Assembly: GCA_032124015.1 (NCBI GenBank)
Contig: JAQBEH010000020.1
Location: 8,965-72,964 of the forward strand
Direction: 5' to 3'
DNA length: 64,000 bases
Origin: Acidobacteriota bacterium
Lineage (GTDB): Bacteria > Acidobacteriota > Polarisedimenticolia > Polarisedimenticolales > DASRJG01
Shown here: positions 1-58,285 of the stretch, piece by piece
Numbering within the stretch: position 1 is the stretch's first letter
Layout: every line of letters starts with the position of its first letter
Translations under genes and position numbers: made by a program
The notes under the pieces: model-generated
What the model was told of the DNA's origin: nothing
What the model saw: only the letters and a program-made list of their open reading frames with translations
Database searches by the model: none

Positions 1-664
1 CGGGACGACTCCCGACGAAATCGTGGTCGACGAAGGAGGAATCCGCTACACGGCCGATCCCTGGCGGGGCCAGAAGACGGGCGCCTTTCTCGATCAGCGA
101 GAAAACCGCCTGGCCTGCCGCGCCTACGCTCGCGGGCGCGTCCTCGATGCGTTTTCGTACCATGCGTCGTTCGCGCTGCACGCGGCGTTCCAGGCTTCGG
201 AGGTCGTGGTCGTCGACGCCTCCTCGGACGCATTGACCCGCGGACGCGCGAACGCGGAGTTGAACGGCGCGACGAACCTGACGTTCGTCGAGGCGAACGC
301 GTTCGAGGACCTGCGCGAGCGCGACCGGCGGGGGGAACGATTCGATCTCGTCATGCTCGATCCTCCGGCGTTCGCGAAGAGTCGCGGCGACGTAGTGGCC
401 GCCCGGCGCGGGTACAAAGAGATCAACCTGCGAGCGTTCCGGCTGCTCGCTCCCGGCGGGGTCCTCGTCACGTCGTCCTGCTCGTACAACCTCGACGAAC
501 CGTCGTTCGAAGGCCTCGTGCGCGAGGCCGCGGCCGACGCGGGCCGGGACGTGGTGGCGCTCAAACGGAGAGGACAGGCCGCCGACCATCCCGTGCGGCT
601 GGCGTTTCCCGAGGGCCGCTATCTGAAGTGCTTCGTGCTGCGGGACGCGTCAGGGGCGCCGTGA
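1..664 (+). CDS. Class I SAM-dependent rRNA methyltransferase, RlmI/YwbD-like (C-terminal part; 5-prime end lies outside window)
   Basis: Translation contains QKTGAFLDQRENR, FDLVMLDPPAFAKSR, AARRGYKEINLRAFRLLAPGGVLVTSSCS, typical of the RlmI/RlmK PUA-SAM methyltransferase family. The reading frame is open to the window edge. Confidence 0.8.
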   Translation, partial: GTTPDEIVVDEGGIRYTADPWRGQKTGAFLDQRENRLACRAYARGRVLDAFSYHASFALHAAFQASEVVVVDASSDALTRGRANAELNGATNLTFVEANAFEDLRERDRRGERFDLVMLDPPAFAKSRGDVVAARRGYKEINLRAFRLLAPGGVLVTSSCSYNLDEPSFEGLVREAAADAGRDVVALKRRGQAADHPVRLAFPEGRYLKCFVLRDASGAP

Positions 665-3600
665 GGGGCGGCAGCGTGCTGGCCGCGGCGTTCGCCTGTG
701 CCTTGGCGACGGGCGGAACGCACGCCCAAACGCCACCCGACGCGCGATCTACGACCTGGCTGCAGCGCCGCCTCGAGACGGGCTTGGCGGAGGCGCTCGG
801 CGGAACGGTGCGGATCGGGCGGATCGACGTCGACTGGACCACGCTGTCGGCCACGGTCGGCGACGTGGCGATTGCGATCCCCGCCGGCGGAGCGCCGCCG
901 CTCACCGCCACGATCGGAGAGGGGAGAATCAAGCTCGCCTGGTCCGGGCTGAGCGGCATCGCGGGCGGGCAGGTTCACATCACCGAGCTCGTCGCGCGCA
1001 ACGCGACGTTTTCGCTCAGCCGGGAGTGGATCGACGCGTTCAAGCCGAAAGTCAGGAAGGAGGGCGGGCCGGTCGCGGTCCAGATCGACCGGCTCGTGGT
1101 CGAGGACGCCACCGCGGAGTATCTCGATGGGCACCATCACGTGCGGGTGCAGACCCACTCTTTCAATTTCCGCGGCGACTGGTCGACCTCGCGCCAGCGA
1201 CTCATCGGTGAGTTGCGCACCGAAGCCACCCTCGAGGCGCCGATCTTCAACCGCCCGTGGCCGGCTTCGGTTCGGTCGGGGTTGAGGCTCGGCGGCGGGC
1301 GACTCGAGATTTTTTCGGCGACCGCCGAGGGAGCAGGAGCCACCGCGGAGCTCACGGGAAACGTCGTGTGGGGGGTGGGCGTGTCCTTCACGGCGCAGGG
1401 CCGTTTGGACGCTGACCTCGCTGCTTTGAGCCCTTTTCTGGAGGGCCATGCCGGGCTTTCGGGCCGGGCCGAGGGACCCGTCCAGATCGTGTACACCGGC
1501 GGCGTGCCGATCCGGGTCGCGATGCAGGCGGCGACGACGGGATTTCGCGTCGGGCCGATCGCCACTGAGACCGCTCGCTGCGACCTCACGATCCGCCCGG
1601 GACACTTGGACGTCGAAAATATCGACGCGCGGGCCTACAAGGGGACCTTCGCGGGCAACGTGGGTCTCGACTTCGGCACGCCGCTCGAACTCCGGACGGA
1701 CATCTCAGGGAAGGGCGCCGATCTCTCCCGGCTGATCGCCCTCGCCGGACCGGTACTTCCGCTTGCGAGCGTCGCCGACGTGACGTTCAAGATCGTGGGC
1801 GATCCCGGGAGACTCGTGACGTGGAACGGCGGAGGGACCTTCGACGCCGTGCCTGTTTCCGCGGGTACGAGCGCGCGCATTCCCGCGGGAGGACGCGGAC
1901 GCCTGACGTTCGATTCCGGCCGCGTGCGCGTGCAAGCGGACCGTTTATCGCTGGCGGAGACGTCGTTGCGTTTCGACCTCCTGTCGGAACTCTCCGCGGC
2001 GCCGGCCAAGACCCATCTCACGGTCGACGGGACGACGCGCGACGCCCGGGTGACGCAAGACGCCGCATTGTCGATCCTCGACGCGTTCGGGGTCGAGCGG
2101 AATCGGTTCGCCCTCCTGCCTCTTCATGGAGCCGGGACCCTGCGCGCTGCGTTGAGGACCGCCGGTCGGGCCGCGACGATCGACCTGGGACTCGAGCTCG
2201 CGGAGGGCTCCTACGCCGGCGAGCCGTTCGCTTCGGCGATCCTGGATCTCGGTGTCTCACCAATCGCCGTGGACATCCGGCGCGTCGAGTTGTCCGGCGG
2301 CGGGCAGTTCTTGGCGGGGAGCGCGCGCTTCGACGCCAAGAACGGGGCGCTCGATGCGATCGACCTCACGGCCCGAGGCGTGGACATGGCGAGGCTGCTT
2401 GCGAGCGCAGGGGTCGCCGGTTCCGTCGAAGGCCGTGTCGAGGGGACGCTTCGCGGATCGCGCGAAGGCGGCGTGTTCGCAGCCCTCGGGCACGTCGCGG
2501 CGCACAGGGTCATCGTCGGTCATGAGATTGTCGACACGGTGGAGGCGCCCGTTCGTATCGAAGGGGATCAAGTCATTCTCGACGGGCTCGTCGCGCGGAG
2601 TGACGGCTTCGATGCCAGCGGACGCGTGACCTACGCCGTCGCGAAGGGCGAAGTCGAGGTGGAGATCGACGCGGCGACCATAGACCTTGCGCGCAACCGC
2701 ACGGTTGCCGACGCGGGCCTGACCGCGCAAGGGACGATTCATGCGTTGGGTTCGATGACGATCACGAAAGACGGTCCCAACGGGCGATTTGGGCTCACGG
2801 CGAGCGACCTCCTCCTGGATACGGGCCGCAGCGGATTACGTGAGATCCAACTCGGGAACCTGACCGGCGAGGCGACGATCTTGCCGATCGGACTCGAGTT
2901 CGCCGTCGCTTCGCGGCCTTCCGCATGGACCTTCGAGGGGTTCTTGGGCTTTGCGCCCAAACTGCCGCTTTCGGCCGTGCTGTATTTCGAAAACCTGGTC
3001 GTGGGGGCCGGGGGTGTTTTCGGAGAAAGCATCGACCTGACGTTGAAGGGGCAGGTCCACGCGGAAGGCGATCTGACGGAACCCCGCGCGATGGCGATCA
3101 ACGGCGTCTTCGACGAGACTGACGTCCGGCTCGGGCTGCGGGTCGTTCGCTCCCTCGAGCCGTTTCCCCTGCGCCTCGACGGCGGGCGCTTCGTGCTCGG
3201 CCCATCGCGGTTTTCCGGTGACGCCGCGGAGGTCGAACTCGCCGCGAGCGGATCGGTCGAGGGAGGAGACGTCGCGGGGTACCTCCGGGGGACGCTCGAC
3301 CTGGCGGTCGCGTCGTCGCTGTGGTCCGAGATCCGCGGCGGCGGGACGCTCACCATCGACGCGACCCTCGCCGGTACGTTCGAGCGCCCCGACCTTGAAG
3401 GCCGCGTCGCCGTGCGTGACGGTCGCCTGCGTCTGATCGGCTATCCGCAGTCTTTGGAGTCGATCGATGCGGACGCGGTGCTCGCGGGGCAGACGCTCAC
3501 GCTTTCGTCGTTTCACGCCCTCCAGGGCGGGGGAGAGATCTCGGCGACGGGGAGCGTGGAGTTCGAAGGTGTCGTTCCCAAGTCCCTTCGGGCCGAGTTC

Positions 3601-6600
3601 ACGGGCGCAAACGTCAGCGCGAAATTTCCCGAGGGGTTCAAAGGGACCTACGAGGGCCGCATCGAGGTCGAGGGAACGCCAAAGCGCGCGAAGATCTCAG
3701 GACGGGTCGACGTCGTGCGGGGTTTGTACTCCAAGGACTTCGACGTCGGTCTTTTCGCTGGGGCGCAACGCGAGTTCGACGCCGCGGCCGAGTCGCCGTT
3801 TCCTCGCAATCTCTTTCTCGACGTCGACGTCGTGGCGCCGGGTAACGTCTGGCTTCGCAACGACGTGGCCGCCGTCGAGGCGGAGGGGCAGATTCATCTC
3901 GGAGGCGAGCTGGCGCGCCCGGAGGTGACCGGACATTTCAACCTGGTGCCCGGCGGCGTCGTCACCTATCGGGACGTGAAGTATCGCATCGACTACGGAA
4001 CGGTGAATTTGACCGATCCGAAGCGCATCAACCCGTACCTCGAATTTCGCGGCCGCACTCGCGTTGCGGAGTACGACATCACGCTGCGCATCGCGGGTAC
4101 GCTCGACAAATTCGATTACGAGCTGGCCTCCACGCCGCCGCTCGACTCGCAGGACATCATCTCGCTTCTCGTCACAGGAAAGACGCTCGGCACGCTGGGC
4201 GATTCGGCCACCGCCGCGGCGCTTCCGACGGACATGGCCGCCTACTACTTCGCCGGCCTGCTGAGTTCGACGTTCGGAAAACAGATTGAGAGCTCGCTCG
4301 GGATCGATCAACTGGCGATCACTCCGCAGTTGCTGAAGGGGGAGTCCGATCCGACCGCGCGTGTCACGGTCGGCAAACACGTGAGCGACTCCGTGAAGGT
4401 CTCGTTCTCCCAGGATATCGGAACCGCTCAGAAGCAGACCTACTCGGTGTCTTGGGACGCTTCGCGGCGCATCCGCCTGGTCGTCGAGGACGACACGGAG
4501 TCCGGAATCGGCGGCGAATTGCAGTACGCCCAGCAGTTCGGCGGGACACCGATCGGCGGCGGGAAGGGCGGCGCGTTGGGAACGGTCGCATCCGTCGAGG
4601 TGATGACGGCCGACGGGGCGCCGCTTTCGGATCTCGTCAAACGAGCGAAAATCAAGGTCGGCGAACCTTTCGACCGCGGCCGGATGCTCCAGGGGGGCGA
4701 TCGCATTCGCGCCGCACTCCTGAAGGCAGGCTTCATCCAGGCCACCGTCCGCGCCGAGGCGGTGGTCGACGAAGGCCCGCCGCTTACGCGGCGGATCGTC
4801 TACCGCGTTGTGCCGGGACCGCCGGTCACGGTCGAGTTGGTCATGAGCGACGGCAAGGGGAAGCGAAAGGCTCGGAAATCGCTCAAGGCCTTCTGGCGCG
4901 AGACGATGTACACGCCGGATTTCTGGGAAGAAGCGGTCGATGCCCTGCTCGCCGACTATCGAGATCGCGGCTACTACGCCGCCGATGTCACGTGGCAGAC
5001 GGCGGACAGCCCGTCCGGGCGAACGGTGCGCATTCTCGTGGATCGCGGAAAACCGGTGCGCCTGCGTTCGGTGCGCTTCGAGGGAGGCACGTCGATCCCG
5101 CGGGAGCGCATCGACAAGCAGATGACCTGCCTGAAGAGCCAGGGGCTGCGCAAGCCTCGCCTCGAACCGTCGGTGCTGGCGGATGACCTCGCCTCGGTCA
5201 GGGCTCTTTACCGCGAGGAGGGGTTCACACGCGTGCGCATCGGACTGCCGCGGATCACGCTGTCCGCGACGGGCGAGAGCGCCGAGGTCGATGTCGCCAT
5301 CGACGAAGGACCGCGATTCACGGTCGGCACGGTCGGCTATTCGGGAGGGGACGCCCTGTCGGAAGAGCAGCTGCGCGCATCGACGTCGATCGAGCCCGGA
5401 ACGACGTTTTCGCCGCGCCGGCTCGCCGAGGTCGAACAGACGCTGAGGGAGCGATTCGACGCGCTCGGCTATCCCGACACGAGCGTCGAGTCCCGCGTCG
5501 AGCTCGTGGGGGATCGCGCGAACATCCTCTTCGAGATCGCTTCAGGCAGCCGCAAGGAGGTTGGCGAGATCGCGATCGAAGGGAACCGCGTCACCAAGGA
5601 CAAGACGATCGCAAAAGCGCTGACCTTCGGGGTCGGCCAGGTCGTCTCGAAACAGGCGCTCCTCGAGAGCCAGCAACGACTCTATCGAACCGGGCTCTTT
5701 TCCAGCGTCAAACTCTCGTGCGTTCCCGAAGGAGGCGCTGACGCGAGCGCCCAAGTCGTGACCGTGAAGGTCACGGAGGCGCCGCCATTCGCGCTTGGTC
5801 TCGGCGTGGGATACGACTCGACCGACGGCCCGGGGGCGAGCTTCCTTCTCGGGTACTCGAACCTCGGCGGACGCAACGTGGCGATCGCGCTGCAGGGCCG
5901 ATTCAACCGCAATGAGACTCGGGGGCTTCTCACGATTCGGAGAAGGCGCGTGTTCGGAAACACGATCGACTCACTCGGCTCGTTGCTCTATGAAAGGCAG
6001 GTCCAGGACGGGTTCTCCACGCTGCAAACTACGGCCTCGATCCGGTTGGAACAGCGGCCGAAGCCGCGGTGGATTCGCTACCTCCGGTATAGCATCCAGG
6101 AGGCCCGAGTTACCGACATCACCGATGCCGAGGCGGCGCTCGAGCAGATCTTCAAGGACAAATTGTCGAGCGTGCGGCTCGCCAATGCGAGCCTCGGAAT
6201 CGTCCGGGATACGCGCGACGACGCCTTTCTCCCGACCCGAGGAGGTTATGCCTCGATCGAGGGCACCGTCTTTGCGAGAGCGCTCGGATCCGAGGCGTCT
6301 TTGCTCCAGTCGTTCCTGCGCGGATCGTGGACTTACTCGGCCAAGCGAGGCGGGCGTTTCGCGACGTTCCTCCGCATCGGCGCCGAGCAACCCTTCGCCG
6401 ACACCGACATCGTCCCGCTCTCCGAGCGCTACTTCGCCGGCGGAATCAACACGCTACGCGGTTTCGCCACGGACTCGGTCGGTGGGTTGGTCATCCCTCG
6501 TGACCCAAACCAGCCCGATGGCCCGAGTGTCAACATCGGAGGCGAAGCGATCTTCTTGTTCAACCAGGAGTGGCACTTCCCCATCTGGAAGAGTTTGCGT

Positions 6601-6801
6601 GGGGAGCTGTTCCTCGACGTCGGAAACGTCTACCCGACGATCAGCGACTTCGACCTGACCGAGCTGCGCTACGACGCCGGCGTCGGCCTCCGCCTCGAGA
6701 CGCCGATCGGGCCGATCCGCCTCGAGTACGGGTGGAAGCTCGATCGGCAACCGGGCGAGAGCCCAGGCGAGTTGATCTTCGCGATCGGAACGCTGTTCTG
6801 A
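661..6801 (+). CDS. TamB/AsmA-like translocation-assembly protein fused in frame to POTRA repeats and an Omp85 (BamA/TamA-type) beta-barrel
   Basis: One uninterrupted ORF (track 628..6801). GTG 661 overlaps the upstream stop as GTGA; GTG 628 is an alternative start. N-terminal signal/anchor SVLAAAFACALATGGTHA. Long TamB-like body ends in a DUF490-like block (VGKHVSDSVKVSFSQDIG...GGELQYAQQF, ends about 4538). A Gly-rich linker follows, then about five POTRA-like repeats (about 4585-5780). The Omp85-type barrel ends ...LIFAIGTLF. Confidence 0.8.
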   Translation: MRGGSVLAAAFACALATGGTHAQTPPDARSTTWLQRRLETGLAEALGGTVRIGRIDVDWTTLSATVGDVAIAIPAGGAPPLTATIGEGRIKLAWSGLSGIAGGQVHITELVARNATFSLSREWIDAFKPKVRKEGGPVAVQIDRLVVEDATAEYLDGHHHVRVQTHSFNFRGDWSTSRQRLIGELRTEATLEAPIFNRPWPASVRSGLRLGGGRLEIFSATAEGAGATAELTGNVVWGVGVSFTAQGRLDADLAALSPFLEGHAGLSGRAEGPVQIVYTGGVPIRVAMQAATTGFRVGPIATETARCDLTIRPGHLDVENIDARAYKGTFAGNVGLDFGTPLELRTDISGKGADLSRLIALAGPVLPLASVADVTFKIVGDPGRLVTWNGGGTFDAVPVSAGTSARIPAGGRGRLTFDSGRVRVQADRLSLAETSLRFDLLSELSAAPAKTHLTVDGTTRDARVTQDAALSILDAFGVERNRFALLPLHGAGTLRAALRTAGRAATIDLGLELAEGSYAGEPFASAILDLGVSPIAVDIRRVELSGGGQFLAGSARFDAKNGALDAIDLTARGVDMARLLASAGVAGSVEGRVEGTLRGSREGGVFAALGHVAAHRVIVGHEIVDTVEAPVRIEGDQVILDGLVARSDGFDASGRVTYAVAKGEVEVEIDAATIDLARNRTVADAGLTAQGTIHALGSMTITKDGPNGRFGLTASDLLLDTGRSGLREIQLGNLTGEATILPIGLEFAVASRPSAWTFEGFLGFAPKLPLSAVLYFENLVVGAGGVFGESIDLTLKGQVHAEGDLTEPRAMAINGVFDETDVRLGLRVVRSLEPFPLRLDGGRFVLGPSRFSGDAAEVELAASGSVEGGDVAGYLRGTLDLAVASSLWSEIRGGGTLTIDATLAGTFERPDLEGRVAVRDGRLRLIGYPQSLESIDADAVLAGQTLTLSSFHALQGGGEISATGSVEFEGVVPKSLRAEFTGANVSAKFPEGFKGTYEGRIEVEGTPKRAKISGRVDVVRGLYSKDFDVGLFAGAQREFDAAAESPFPRNLFLDVDVVAPGNVWLRNDVAAVEAEGQIHLGGELARPEVTGHFNLVPGGVVTYRDVKYRIDYGTVNLTDPKRINPYLEFRGRTRVAEYDITLRIAGTLDKFDYELASTPPLDSQDIISLLVTGKTLGTLGDSATAAALPTDMAAYYFAGLLSSTFGKQIESSLGIDQLAITPQLLKGESDPTARVTVGKHVSDSVKVSFSQDIGTAQKQTYSVSWDASRRIRLVVEDDTESGIGGELQYAQQFGGTPIGGGKGGALGTVASVEVMTADGAPLSDLVKRAKIKVGEPFDRGRMLQGGDRIRAALLKAGFIQATVRAEAVVDEGPPLTRRIVYRVVPGPPVTVELVMSDGKGKRKARKSLKAFWRETMYTPDFWEEAVDALLADYRDRGYYAADVTWQTADSPSGRTVRILVDRGKPVRLRSVRFEGGTSIPRERIDKQMTCLKSQGLRKPRLEPSVLADDLASVRALYREEGFTRVRIGLPRITLSATGESAEVDVAIDEGPRFTVGTVGYSGGDALSEEQLRASTSIEPGTTFSPRRLAEVEQTLRERFDALGYPDTSVESRVELVGDRANILFEIASGSRKEVGEIAIEGNRVTKDKTIAKALTFGVGQVVSKQALLESQQRLYRTGLFSSVKLSCVPEGGADASAQVVTVKVTEAPPFALGLGVGYDSTDGPGASFLLGYSNLGGRNVAIALQGRFNRNETRGLLTIRRRRVFGNTIDSLGSLLYERQVQDGFSTLQTTASIRLEQRPKPRWIRYLRYSIQEARVTDITDAEAALEQIFKDKLSSVRLANASLGIVRDTRDDAFLPTRGGYASIEGTVFARALGSEASLLQSFLRGSWTYSAKRGGRFATFLRIGAEQPFADTDIVPLSERYFAGGINTLRGFATDSVGGLVIPRDPNQPDGPSVNIGGEAIFLFNQEWHFPIWKSLRGELFLDVGNVYPTISDFDLTELRYDAGVGLRLETPIGPIRLEYGWKLDRQPGESPGELIFAIGTLF

Positions 6802-6828
6802 TCGGTGATTCCGGGAGAAAAAACAGCC

Positions 6829-6870
6829 GCCGCCGGCAGAAGCGGGGGAATGGGGGGGGGTGCCGGCGGC
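6829..6870. terminator. GC-rich hairpin between convergent genes (possible bidirectional terminator)
   Basis: gccgccggca (6829-6838) is complementary to tgccggcggc (6861-6870). The 22-nt loop contains a G9 run. No clear U-tract. Confidence 0.3.
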
Positions 6871-6893
6871 GACCGTTGGGTGGGGCGTGATCG

Positions 6894-7253
6894 TCAGGCC
6901 AAGGAGAAGCGGAGGTTGCCGCGCTGGGGGCCGAGGCAAACCCGGAGTTTCTGCTTCGCTTCGCGTTCGAGTTGTCGGACTCGCTCCCGGCTGAGGTTCA
7001 TTCTCTTTCCGATCTCCTCGAGCGTTTGCTCCTGACCGCCGAGAAGGCCGAAACGGTTCCTAATGATGTGGAGCTCGCGCTCGTCCAGGCGTCCGAGAGC
7101 CCGCTGGACGATCGCTCCGACCTCGCGGTTGTAGATCTTTTCTTCTTGATTTTCCGACTGGGTGTCGGCGAGGAGGGTCGAAAACCGGCATTCTTCGTCC
7201 GAATCCACGTAGTCATCTATCGAGAGCTCTTTTTGTAGCAGCGGGAAGATCAT
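6894..7253 (-). CDS. Stand-alone sigma-70 region 3.2-4.2 protein (119 aa; truncated sigma-like)
   Basis: ATG at 7253 is preceded by GGAGAA. MIFPLLQKELSIDDYVDSDEE...RELHIIRNRFGLLGGQEQTLEEIGKRMNLSRERVRQLEREAKQKL aligns with the C-terminal third of the full sigma at 57428..58285. No region 2 is encoded upstream in any frame. The track ORF extension to 7481 has no sigma similarity. Confidence 0.6.
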   Translation of the reverse strand: MIFPLLQKELSIDDYVDSDEECRFSTLLADTQSENQEEKIYNREVGAIVQRALGRLDERELHIIRNRFGLLGGQEQTLEEIGKRMNLSRERVRQLEREAKQKLRVCLGPQRGNLRFSLA

Positions 7254-7542
7254 CACGTTCTCCTGAGGTGCCCCTCGGCAGGGATGTAAAGCAACAGGCG
7301 TGCCGAGTCTTAATCCGCCGCCGCTCGCCTGCGGGGCACGACCCGCGGGACCAAATGTGCCCGCAAACAGGGAGTTACCAGGCCTGCCGTGGGCAGGCGA
7401 AAGTCGATTCATTTCATGGTGATTCAGCTCAGGCCCAGGCGTGTCGCGCCGCGCTGGCGCTCGTCGCCCGCGCCCATGCAAGAATGGCGCGCTTCGGGCG
7501 GCTGCGGATTTGGACGCGGCGCTACGGCGGAGCGGAGGCTGC

Positions 7543-9291
7543 GTGGGTCGGATCCGCGTCCTGGATGATCACCTCGTCAATCGCATCGCCGCCGGCGAAG
7601 TCGTCGAACGGCCCGCCGCGGTCGTCAAGGAACTCGTCGAGAACAGCTTGGACGCCGGGGCCGGTTCGATCGAAGTCCGCGTCGAAGACGGAGGCCGGAG
7701 GAGGATCATCGTTGCCGACGACGGAGAGGGGATGGAGCGCGACGACGCGCTTCTCGCCCTGGAACGGCACGCCACGAGCAAACTCCGCAGCTTCGAGGAC
7801 CTCGCGGCCATCGCCACCTTGGGATTTCGCGGGGAAGCGCTCCCGAGCATCGCCGCGGTTTCCCGTTTTCTCATTCGCACCGCGGCACGCGATGGGTTCG
7901 GCACCGAGATCGAAGTGCGGGCCGGAAGGATCAGTGGCGTACGCGAAGTGGAACGGGGGCGAGGCACGACGACGGAAGTGGGCGGGATCTTTTTCAACGT
8001 GCCCGCGCGGCGAAAGTTCCTGCGAGCGGCTCCGACGGAGCTCGCTCACATCGTCCGTACGGTCGCCCACTACGCGCTGGCGCACCCGTCGGTGCGGTTC
8101 GTCCTCGAACACGAGGGGAGACGTCTGATCGAAGCAGCGAAGGCGGCCGACCGGGCCGAGCGCATCGCCCAGGTCCACGGGCGCGAGCTCGCGGCCAAGC
8201 TGGTGCCGTTCGACGCGGAAAGCTCCGGGATTCGAGCGAGCGGATTCGCGGGCCGGCCGGTCGACGCGCTGGCCCGCCGCGACGTCCAGCACGTCTTCGT
8301 GAACGGCCGCCTCGTGCAGGACCGGGTTTTGGCGCACGCGATCGCCGCGGCGTACGGCAACACGCTGGCCCGTGGCCTCTACCCCGCGATGCTCCTTTTC
8401 GTCGACCTCGACCCCTCCCGGGTCGACGTCAACGTGCATCCCCAAAAAACCGAGGTGCGTTTCGACCGATCCTCCGACGTGCATGACGCGGTGCGAGCCG
8501 CCGTCGCCGCAGCACTTTCGCACGAAACCGCAGTGCCGCACCTTCAAGACCTGAGACCCGGGACGGGCGCGCCCGCACCTTCCGCTTCTTTCGCAGCGGC
8601 GCTGATCCGTAGTGAGGCCGTGGCCGAGTTCCCGGCGCGAGCCTACGGGCCGCAGGGTGGTGCGTCGGCACCGAGCCTGCTCGACGAGGGGAGCGCCGCG
8701 GTCGATCCCGGCCGCCGGGCGGTGCCGTTGGCGCAGTACAAAGATTCCTACATCGTCGCGCAGGATCGGGAGGGGCTATTGATCGTCGATCAGCACGTCG
8801 CTCACGAACGCGTCCTGTTCGAGCGCTACCTAGGAGAAACGGAGCGCGGCGACGTTCACGTGCAGCGCCTCCTTTTCCCGAAAACGATCGAGTTGTCGGC
8901 CGATGAGGCGGTGGTTTTCGCAGCTGAGGCGGGGGAGTTCGCGCGCCTCGGTTTTCTGCTGGAACCGTTCGGCGGGAACGCAGTGAAACTGGACGGCGTT
9001 CCGGCATTCGCCAAGGACGTGGCTCCCGATCGCCTGCTGCGCGAGCTCCTCGGGGAAGCCGCGAGAACGCGTAGCGCGGCGACCGGTGCCGAGGAGTTGC
9101 GCCGGCGGCTGGTGACGAGCGCTTCCTGTCAAGCGGCGATCAAGGTCAACTACCCCCTGGCCCGCGAGGGGATGCAGCGCCTTTTGGATGACCTCTTTCA
9201 GACCGAAAATCCGACGACCTGTCCTCACGGGCGGCCGATCATCTTCAGGCTCACACTGGACGAGATCGAAAGAGCCTTCAGGCGACGCTGA
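7543..9291 (+). CDS. mutL: DNA mismatch repair protein MutL
   Basis: IRVLDDHLVNRIAAGEVVERPAAVVKELVENSLDAGA (GHKL ATPase N-terminus). C-terminal dimerisation/endonuclease region includes ...ACQAAIKVN...CPHGRP. GTG 7543 follows GGAGG; the track ATG 7441 would add a non-homologous extension. Confidence 0.9.
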   Translation: MGRIRVLDDHLVNRIAAGEVVERPAAVVKELVENSLDAGAGSIEVRVEDGGRRRIIVADDGEGMERDDALLALERHATSKLRSFEDLAAIATLGFRGEALPSIAAVSRFLIRTAARDGFGTEIEVRAGRISGVREVERGRGTTTEVGGIFFNVPARRKFLRAAPTELAHIVRTVAHYALAHPSVRFVLEHEGRRLIEAAKAADRAERIAQVHGRELAAKLVPFDAESSGIRASGFAGRPVDALARRDVQHVFVNGRLVQDRVLAHAIAAAYGNTLARGLYPAMLLFVDLDPSRVDVNVHPQKTEVRFDRSSDVHDAVRAAVAAALSHETAVPHLQDLRPGTGAPAPSASFAAALIRSEAVAEFPARAYGPQGGASAPSLLDEGSAAVDPGRRAVPLAQYKDSYIVAQDREGLLIVDQHVAHERVLFERYLGETERGDVHVQRLLFPKTIELSADEAVVFAAEAGEFARLGFLLEPFGGNAVKLDGVPAFAKDVAPDRLLRELLGEAARTRSAATGAEELRRRLVTSASCQAAIKVNYPLAREGMQRLLDDLFQTENPTTCPHGRPIIFRLTLDEIERAFRRR

Positions 9292-57427: not shown

Positions 57428-58285
57428 ATGGAAGACGAACGAGTACAGGCCCGCGGCGGCGGCTCGGAATCCCTCAAGAAGTATCTCAAGGAGATCTCGC
57501 GGCTGAGCCGGATCACAGCCGAGGAAGAGCGTGTGCTCGGGCGCAAGATCCAAAAGGGCGATCAAAAGGCCCTTCGCCGCCTGGTCGAGGCCAACCTCCG
57601 TTTCGTCGTCTCCTACGCCAAACGCTACCGCGGATGCGGGATGTCGTTCCTCGACTTGATCAACGAGGGAAACATCGGCCTCATCGAGGCCGCCAAGCGG
57701 TATGACGCCGGCAAGAACGTCAAGTTCATCACCTACGCCGTATGGTGGGTCCGGCAGGCGATCATTCACGCGCTGTCCGACCAGAGCGGGGCGTTCCGTC
57801 TGCCGCAAAAACAGGCGAACCTCCTATACCGCATCGGCAAGGCGCAGTCGATGCTCCGCAATGAGTTGGAGCGCGCCCCGACCGCTCAGGAAGTCGCGAC
57901 GCGAATCGAGGCCACGCTCGAAGAGGTGACCACGCTCTTACAGGTCGCCAACGACAACGTCTCGCTCTCGGCGGTCATCGACGAAGAGCACGAGTTCCAC
58001 CTGTCGGACAAGCTCGAGCAGGACACGATTCCCGCGGCTGATTTCGTCTTTCTCCGACAGTCCCTGCGCCGCCACGTTCGGCAGGCGCTCGGCGAACTGG
58101 TCGAGAAGGAAGAGATGGTCCTACGGCTGCGGTTCGGCCTGGACGGAGCCGATCCGAAGACGCTCAAGGAAATCGGTGAGATGATGAATCTCTCGCGGGA
58201 GCGCATCCGCCAGATCGAAGCCCAGGCCCTCGAGAAATTGAACCGTTCACAGAAATGCCAACAGCTCCGGGGCTACCTCAACTGA
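57428..58285 (+). CDS. Sigma-70 family RNA polymerase sigma factor (RpoD/RpoS-like group, no region 1.1)
   Basis: LVEANLRFVVSYAKRY; DLINEGNIGLIEAAKRYD; FITYAVWWVRQAIIHAL (region 2); KTLKEIGEMMNLSRERIRQIEAQALEKL (region 4.2). No RpoH box was seen. Confidence 0.85.
   Translation: MEDERVQARGGGSESLKKYLKEISRLSRITAEEERVLGRKIQKGDQKALRRLVEANLRFVVSYAKRYRGCGMSFLDLINEGNIGLIEAAKRYDAGKNVKFITYAVWWVRQAIIHALSDQSGAFRLPQKQANLLYRIGKAQSMLRNELERAPTAQEVATRIEATLEEVTTLLQVANDNVSLSAVIDEEHEFHLSDKLEQDTIPAADFVFLRQSLRRHVRQALGELVEKEEMVLRLRFGLDGADPKTLKEIGEMMNLSRERIRQIEAQALEKLNRSQKCQQLRGYLN

Follow-up and report, generated by a model that had tools for sequence, protein, structure and literature searches.

The window analysed here is a stretch of 64,000 nucleotides of contig JAQBEH010000020.1, from a bacterium of the Acidobacteriota. 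It carries a small gene, hereafter the mini-gene, whose 119-residue product corresponds, judged by its sequence, to the C-terminal part of a group-1/2 (RpoD/RpoS-like) sigma-70 family protein, present here as an independent module of regions 3.2 and 4. It is highly probable that this stand-alone region 3.2-4 protein is functional, and its transcription is likely to be sigma-54-dependent. We propose that the mini-protein is a sigma-54-induced module that would dock in trans on the beta-flap and the RNA-exit channel of RNA polymerase and thereby modulate sigma usage, a reading to which we assign a probability of roughly 45%.

A conserved stand-alone region 3.2-4 protein

A sequence-only reading of the window, made before this analysis, had pointed to a 119-codon open reading frame with an ATG start and a GGAGAA ribosome-binding site. 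Both were borne out: the coding sequence occupies 6894–7253 on the minus strand, and the Shine-Dalgarno sequence lies at 7258–7263 on the same strand, 4 nt before the ATG, with an AGGAG-like block kept in orthologous loci. The product had been said to align only to the C-terminal third of sigma-70 proteins, and this holds as well, since positions 3–105 of the family profile align without gaps to E. coli RpoD 498–600, at a constant offset of 495 and with no region 2. The mini-protein starts at the region 3.1/3.2 boundary and continues through the sigma finger, helix 4.1, the helix-turn-helix of region 4.2 and a tail. Residues 1–35 represent the region 3.2 finger and linker, residues 36–69 region 4.1 and residues 70–104 the region 4.2 helix-turn-helix. 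The conserved C-terminal tail, residues 105–119, ends in RFSLA, its L114-R-F-S-L118 being similar to the LRSFL with which primary sigmas end. Both peptides that had been quoted to compare the mini-protein with the full-length sigma encoded at 57428–58285 occur exactly as given, and the two proteins are 56% identical over 55 aa.

A hidden Markov model (HMM) scan for Sigma70_r3 and Sigma70_r4, which the sequence-only reading had proposed as a check, divided the two: Sigma70_r4 was found at 61.2 bits (cutoff 24.1) over residues 52–104 as the single Pfam domain of the protein, and Sigma70_r3 was not significant. Sigma70_r2 was not found in the Pfam search. At E <= 1, Pfam returned Sigma70_r4 together with weak GUN4 and Sigma70_r3 matches and nothing else, with no match to the YlxM/UPF0122 or Rsd/AlgQ models. 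The best NCBIfam scores, 81.5 bits for rpoS_proteo (cutoff 378.7) and 73.5 bits for RpoD_Cterm (cutoff 354), are both below cutoff, and the best matches in that database (RpoS, SigB and RpoD_Cterm) cover the last ~100 positions of those models. Only the generic superfamily model TIGR02937 passes its cutoff (50.4 versus 42.9), and this is why databases list the protein as a "sigma-70 family RNA polymerase sigma factor". Among NCBIfam, PADLOC and PHROG, none has a model dedicated to the family. Because region 2 is missing, the mini-protein should by itself be incapable of binding the beta' clamp helices, of recognising a -10 element or of melting DNA, and hence is no sigma factor, despite the names it carries in databases. 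A longer start (TTG at 7481, giving 195 aa, and JGI calls of 174 aa) was ruled out, as it adds no domain and the upstream sequence is not conserved as coding.

The predicted structure and the retained residues give a more detailed picture of the module. In an AlphaFold2 model, residues 1–33 are predicted to be disordered and the remainder to adopt the four-helix fold of region 4; Foldseek matches this model to region 4 of sigma factors within holoenzymes or in complex with -35 DNA (e.g. 6ono, and 1ku7 at 2.2 A root mean square deviation). The recognition helix SRERVRQLE is invariant, its R89, E90, R91, R93 and Q94 corresponding by offset to R584, E585, R586, R588 and Q589 of sigma-70. R59 and R67 (sigma-70 R554 and R562) are invariant across the aligned members. 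Every residue with which group-1 sigmas contact the -35 element is retained, and NLSRERVRQLER is invariant along its whole length. Also retained are the hydrophobic core residues at the positions of sigma-70 F563, I565, L598 and L607, which we take to be flap-facing. The acidic finger D17-x-[DE]-E-E (D17–E21), inside an S-x-D...L-x-x-D motif (S11/D13/D30), is kept even in subfamilies at 34–45% identity, and invariant residues specific to the family include H62, N66, G72-G73, N86 and K100.

Conservation of the short form is extensive. Searching 5.8 billion proteins gave 391 cluster representatives at E <= 1e-3. The best 120 homologues span the whole query at 64–97% identity, and 104 of them are exactly 119 aa long, the remainder being longer only through upstream start calls; with a wider profile, 552 matches were obtained at E <= 1e-10. 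Twenty-two members (64–93% identity) align over 119 columns with zero gaps and 52 invariant positions. The exact protein of the window is indexed in 108 blocks of a public-assembly collection, and contigs of metagenome-assembled genomes at NCBI show the same gene context; one of them, L090, combines an identical protein with that context. Named records place the clade in the Acidobacteriota, in Candidatus Polarisedimenticolia and its relatives.

The gene is under purifying selection. In pairwise Nei-Gojobori comparisons of nine independent loci, the ratio of nonsynonymous to synonymous rates (dN/dS) is 0.06–0.24, with dS above 1 or saturated. Uncorrected pN/pS spans 0.15–0.54 across the segments, region 3.2 included, with values of 0.30 for region 3.2, 0.36 for region 4.1, 0.16 for region 4.2 and 0.54 for the tail. 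Every main-clade locus has one and the same gene order, with a divergent mutL on one side of the mini-gene and a convergent TamB-POTRA-Omp85 fusion gene on the other, down to 62% protein identity and also in a low-GC relative. One member, which shares 34% identity with P0134 and is about as distant from the window protein, has the same two neighbours in a rearranged form. Short genes next to mutL in related genomes, with low dN/dS, had been named beforehand as an argument for function, and this is the pattern that the relatives display.

These observations bear directly on the suggestion, also made in the sequence-only reading, that the gene might be a decayed remnant of a full-length sigma. 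Such a remnant, or a chance open reading frame, is favoured by the absence of region 2 and a local GC dip only. The conserved 119-aa length, the fixed position and the purifying selection refute the remnant; moreover, the 22-member alignment is gapless, and promoter, ribosome-binding site and terminator are conserved. Full-length copies at this position in relatives were to be expected had the window's copy decayed, and no relative carries a full-length or any longer sigma gene there. We therefore consider the probability of a remnant or chance frame to be negligible, whereas the evidence from sequence, as far as it reaches, supports the second suggestion of that reading, namely a functional sigma-4 protein. 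The divergent intergenic region between mini-gene and mutL (7254–7542, 289 nt) holds no sigma region 2 and is not conserved as coding. As had been claimed, an all-frame tblastn with the window's full sigma gives no sigma similarity there, and the region adjoins mutL, which starts at 7543.

The GC dip itself is real. The counts reported for it, 28/60 G+C at 7201–7260 and 33/60 at 7141–7200, proved exact, compared with a window mean of 39.6 +/- 3.7, and 3 of the 1066 bins in the window lie at or below 28/60. At second codon positions, the G+C fraction of the mini-gene (GC2) is 0.35, like that of the window's other sigma (0.37), versus 0.47–0.50 in neighbouring genes; at third positions (GC3) it is only mildly lower (0.73 versus 0.79–0.82). 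The low GC mostly reflects amino-acid composition and hence is no evidence of foreign origin. A foreign or horizontally acquired gene was ruled out on the GC2 effect, on a GC3 near that of the neighbours and on the synteny of the locus across the class.

A wider HMM search, over 1.84 billion cluster representatives, revealed distant short members of 113–126 aa at 34–48% identity, with the same start, finger motif and helix-turn-helix. Their common start reads M-x-I/F-P-L/W-L/F-Q-x-E-x-S-I-D-D. The existence of these distant members indicates that the stand-alone form predates the main clade. The family was not found on viral contigs, the best IMG/VR match being 39% identical. A PADLOC match to MzaA (41.9 bits) covers the C-terminal part of MzaA only and represents a generic region 4 overlap, and PHROGs gave generic phage sigma matches only. 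On these grounds a phage or defence origin was ruled out.

Predicted transcription of the mini-gene and its relatives

From its sequence, the mini-gene appears to form a self-contained monocistronic unit that extends from a sigma-54-type promoter to an intrinsic terminator. The putative sigma-54 (RpoN) -24/-12 promoter, CGGCACGCCTGTTGCT, lies at 7290–7305 on the minus strand and ends 36 nt before the start codon. Scored at 12 positions against the RpoN consensus TGGCACG-N4-TTGCW, it matches at 11. The pattern GGCACG-N4-TTGCW has this one match on both strands of the 64 kb, where 0.03 are expected, and with a broader pattern that allows one mismatch 7290–7305 is still the only match in the window. 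Upstream conservation among nine aligned loci is otherwise low and limited to a few blocks, of which the strongest is sGGCACG-N4-TTGCT, ending 34–38 nt before the start. All nine main-clade loci score 10–11/12 despite very different GC, the AT-rich genome having TGGTACGCATATTGCT, whereas only 0.8% of random 160-nt windows reach at least 10/12. Across the family, 15 of 25 loci hold an element of at least 10/12 within 160 nt. A scan of 6700–7650 found no sigma-70 type promoter.

Standard sigma-54 geometry predicts a transcription start zone at 7271–7280 (minus strand), which includes a conserved CGAGGGG block. Transcription would start near 7278–7280, ~11–13 nt past the GC of the -12 element, leaving a 5' untranslated region of ~26 nt that contains CGAGGGG and the ribosome-binding site. 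This predicted leader has no significant fold, and a riboswitch or leader RNA was ruled out by the lack of an Rfam match in nine related loci, including L090. Given a sigma-54 promoter, synthesis of the mini-protein should require RpoN together with an ATP-dependent enhancer-binding activator, in other words a signal.

At the other end of the unit, an intrinsic terminator (6816–6877, minus strand) directly follows the stop codon and consists of a GC-rich stem of 17 bp that closes a C-rich loop of 22 nt, together with a U tract. Its predicted folding energy is -36.9 kcal/mol (z = -4.9), and none of 200 shuffled sequences folds as well. The terminator lies between the convergent mini-gene and TamB-Omp85 gene, and equivalent hairpins were recognised by direct sequence reading in L001–L004 and L081. 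A C-rich run, CCCCCCCCCATTCCCCC, is conserved in its loop (6837–6858) and at the equivalent sites of L001–L004. Read from the other strand, the loop is a G-run-rich stretch at the 3' end of the transcript of TamB-Omp85 and might form a G-quadruplex.

Sigma-54-like elements are also present in distant members of the family, where they lie 27–47 nt before the start (L087, L089 and L095). In a subfamily designated MLIPWFQ, the mini-gene sits between a divergent NtrC-type response regulator, with the domains Response_reg, Sigma54_activat and HTH_8, and a downstream MASE1 membrane sensor. This module of activator, mini-gene and MASE1 sensor recurs in independent metagenome contigs (L087, L176, L177 and L186, and partly in L181–L183 and L185). 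The conserved promoter, the dedicated terminator and this activator and sensor context had not been noted in the sequence-only reading, and all three alter the view of the gene. Some MLIPWFQ contigs contain, by eye, apparent BON-domain and YtxH-like stress genes just upstream of the mini-gene, with the sigma-54-like elements farther upstream.

The leaders of these relatives show further features. A nearly invariant hairpin without a U tract, CCGAGGCGGC-GATACCGG-GCCGCCnCCTCGG, occurs 40–55 nt before the mini-gene start in L177 (~5905–5945), L179, L181/L182 and L184, where the proteins are only 53–65% identical; an Rfam scan that included L177, L179, L182 and L184 found no match for it. A longer leader of ~95 nt, located ~30–95 nt before the start, is present in L178, L180, L183, L185 and L186. 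It lies downstream of a sigma-54-like element in L178, L180, L183 and L185, the element of L186 being a variant that scores 7/12. The ~95-nt leader contains GAAAnnTTCAA and GTTACAAC, both conserved, and may be regulatory. Two MLIPWFQ copies, L185 3006–3187 and L186 6001–6210, stop after 53 and 47 codons, respectively, and are either pseudogenes or the result of assembly or sequencing errors.

Possible action on RNA polymerase and rival explanations

The finger and linker of the mini-protein are predicted to be disordered and yet are under selection, which is sensible only if this segment is threaded into RNA polymerase; we therefore infer binding to core polymerase. In the mechanism that we propose, a signal would act through RpoN and an enhancer-binding activator to switch on synthesis of the mini-protein. 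The protein would then dock in trans on core polymerase, occupying the RNA-exit channel, the active-site cleft and the beta-flap tip, and would still be able to read -35 type DNA. Competition with region 3.2-4 of sigma-70 family factors would result in less -35-dependent initiation. The mini-protein might also rival two parts of sigma-54, the core-binding domain and region II, which would generate negative feedback on the mini-gene's own promoter. Of these two parts, the former touches the beta-flap and the latter sits in the RNA-exit channel (PMC5095919). As sigma-54 thus uses the same polymerase surface, the mini-protein could equally antagonise the sigma-54 holoenzyme. By either route, sigma usage would be re-tuned in a stress response signalled through sigma-54. 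The sequence-only reading had suggested a decoy or modulator that occupies the beta-flap or -35 elements; such a mechanism is plausible, the mini-protein having kept its sigma finger and every residue for -35 contact.

Several observations weigh against this proposal. The 64-kb window contains neither rpoN (nor an RpoN box) nor a sigma-54 activator. Sigma-54 control is, by promoter sequence, the rule across the family, yet it is not universal: P0136 (L088) and P0139 (L094, from the complete genome CP070706.1) have apparent promoters of the sigma-70 type, TTGAC-N17-TATTGT. These two promoters (TTGAC-N17-TATTGTCTAGGAC-like) resemble each other, and the neighbours of the mini-genes in L088 and L094 are peroxiredoxin/AhpC, DsbD or Lon-substrate-binding genes instead of mutL and TamB. 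A fragment without region 2 may also bind core polymerase too weakly to hold its own against intact sigmas. Furthermore, the sequence fits three directions of effect, namely inhibition of sigma-70 family factors, inhibition of sigma-54 or assistance to a partner, and the conservation of region 3.2 would equally be expected of one half of a split sigma.

A split sigma, in which the 3.2-4 module is supplied in trans to a separate protein with region 2 (and 3), is accordingly a rival that has to be weighed. The start of the mini-protein coincides almost exactly with the region 3.1/3.2 boundary, and its finger, flap-binding domain and -35-reading residues, all of which a working half-sigma would need, are under purifying selection. 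Its N-terminus, M-x-I/F-P-L/W-L/F-Q, is conserved and hydrophobic and might serve for docking. However, no Sigma70_r2 gene is called within 8–10 kb of the mini-gene in eight annotated loci representing four contexts. The only other sigma in the 64-kb window, an RpoD/SigA-like protein of 285 aa with regions 1.2, 2, 3 and 4 (57428–58285, plus strand), is complete and has kept its own region 4. A search with its N-terminal 177 aa showed that complete orthologues all keep region 4; a few short entries come with no contig information and look like fragments. More generally, the complete RpoD/SigA-like sigmas of the clade keep region 4, as far as a non-exhaustive search extends. An orthologue of the 285-aa sigma (P0388) and a mini-gene product (P0092) are each listed on a 402,571-bp contig. 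Since the full-length sigma coexists with the mini-gene and has its own region 4, the mini-gene is no split of a housekeeping-type sigma. In addition, the main-clade gene is monocistronic, whereas the split sigma SigO-RsoA of Bacillus subtilis is co-transcribed. We regard a split sigma as unlikely, though of some weight.

Another possibility is a stand-alone DNA-binding factor, in which the free region 4 helix-turn-helix would occupy TTGACA-type hexamers and so occlude or mark promoters. Isolated region 4 fragments of sigma-70 bind -35 DNA, and all residues with which group-1 sigmas contact the -35 element are invariant in the mini-protein. A monomeric helix-turn-helix on 6 bp would, on the other hand, offer little specificity or affinity, and nothing points to dimerisation. 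The ~35-residue disordered region 3.2, with its S-x-D...D motif and acidic finger, is selected and yet would be left without a role, which makes this explanation improbable.

The mini-protein might also serve as a decoy for a regulator that binds region 4, titrating either an Rsd/AsiA-like anti-sigma factor or an activator with contacts to region 4, in the way that PhyR mimics a sigma and captures NepR. Sigma mimicry is an established regulatory principle (PhyR, PMC4598750), and the domain is a near-perfect copy of region 4 of group-1/2 sigmas. Nevertheless, no conserved partner gene adjoins the mini-gene in any of its contexts, the conservation of the region 3.2 finger would be unexplained, and Pfam shows no similarity of the mini-protein to such regulators themselves. 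We consider such a decoy distinctly improbable.

Docking on core polymerase, as proposed above, would give the conserved finger a role. We further suggest, tentatively and with some doubt, that free 3.2-4 modules expressed from sigma-54 promoters constitute a new class of regulators that would re-program RNA polymerase through the beta-flap and RNA-exit channel.

Neighbouring genes, known systems and significance

Within the intergenic region shared with mutL, two further elements are conserved in nine loci: a dyad GCGCC-N5-GGCGC at 7446–7460, which takes the form TGCCA-N5/6-GGCA in relatives, and the motif TGCAAGAATGGCGC at 7477–7492. Judged by sequence and position, the latter may be an extended -10 element for mutL. 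Alternatively, the dyad or TGCAAGAATGGCGC could be an activator site, as they lie ~140–190 bp upstream of the sigma-54 promoter; the dyad, at ~140–150 bp, is at a distance typical of activator sites.

The flanking genes were assigned by Pfam families in the orthologous loci. The divergent neighbour mutL occupies 7543–9291 and the convergent neighbour, encoding the TamB-POTRA-Omp85 fusion of 2057 aa, 628–6801, both on the plus strand. The latter combines TamB (DUF490), POTRA repeats and an Omp85 barrel in a single polypeptide of ~2000–2060 aa, so that both partners of TAM, a machine for outer-membrane assembly, are fused. The fusion was also detected in L001, L005, L081, L083, L085, L090 and L095, and measures ~2040–2060 aa in the main clade. 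The 285-aa sigma has no region 1.1 or long N-terminus and is 284–286 aa long in more than 100 relatives. Two proteins of 589 aa (P0124) and 1692 aa (P0128) contain 7–11 tandem units resembling sigma region 4, with the repeat '...LTDREKDILFRRYGLNGYEKQTQ...', an unusual architecture that is unrelated to the mini-gene. P0129 (552 aa) and P0132 (295 aa) are full-length sigmas in which region 3.2-4 is duplicated almost exactly, head to tail, and are probably assembly artefacts.

Comparison with described systems reveals likeness in parts. With the group 1/2 sigmas (RpoD, RpoS and SigB), the mini-protein shares the -35-reading residues, the acidic finger, the LRxxL tail and the fold, but it lacks regions 1.2, 2 and 3.1, and its 119 aa are encoded separately, by a gene equipped with a dedicated promoter and terminator. 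In SigO-RsoA, and in phage T4 with the sigma-2-like gp55 and the beta-flap binder gp33, sigma functions are likewise divided between proteins, with a separate occupant of the flap; in contrast, no region 2 partner was found near the mini-gene. Presumably gp33 and RsoA are no recognisable copies of sigma 3.2-4, unlike the mini-protein. For Rsd of E. coli, AsiA of T4 and gp39 of phage P23-45, the outcome would be the same as that predicted here, a weaker -35-dependent initiation and a shifted sigma competition. These proteins, however, bind region 4 and are unrelated in sequence, whereas the mini-protein is itself a copy of region 4 that would occupy the docking site.

In the alphaproteobacterial general stress response, PhyR acts as a sigma-factor mimic (PMC4598750), so that a sigma-derived domain likewise serves as a regulator. 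The mini-protein differs in having no receiver domain, no sigma-2 domain and no adjacent small anti-sigma gene, and in keeping region 3.2. Sigma-54 and an enhancer-binding protein are known to drive a sigma-70 family gene in the case of HrpRS acting on hrpL (PMC8999054). Here too, a sigma-70 family coding sequence stands under a -24/-12 promoter, and an NtrC-type activator adjoins the mini-gene in one subfamily. HrpL, however, is a complete extracytoplasmic function sigma that directs transcription, while the mini-protein is without the half needed for this. The mini-protein thus matches none of these systems in architecture. Full-text literature searches aimed at such proteins yielded no account of a region 3.2-4 protein that stands alone, which is no proof of its absence from the literature, and there is a real chance that the mini-protein represents a new class of regulator.

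The competition of sigma factors for core polymerase is central to the control of bacterial genes and is still understood only in part. Its known modulators, among them Rsd, AsiA, 6S RNA, Crl and ppGpp/DksA, act by binding sigma or the polymerase. If our proposal is true, this competition would be tuned in a novel manner, by a conserved cellular protein that is itself one third of a housekeeping-type sigma, docks on polymerase, reads -35 elements and is controlled by sigma-54. The protein is small and soluble-looking, and its predicted partners (beta-flap, core polymerase and -35 DNA) have established assays. Current annotation as a "sigma-70 family" or "primary sigma factor" is incorrect, since the protein lacks region 2, and it inflates the sigma counts of Acidobacteriota genomes.

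For the bacteria that carry it, the mini-protein would, if the proposal holds, be an endogenous switch that mimics sigma and directly links two unrelated sigma systems, sigma-54 and sigma-70. Its effect would be either a shutdown of -35-dependent transcription under stress or a feedback on formation of the sigma-54 holoenzyme. Should these proteins indeed form a regulator class, the mini-protein would in one lineage be the output of a two-component module composed of a MASE1 sensor and an NtrC-type regulator.

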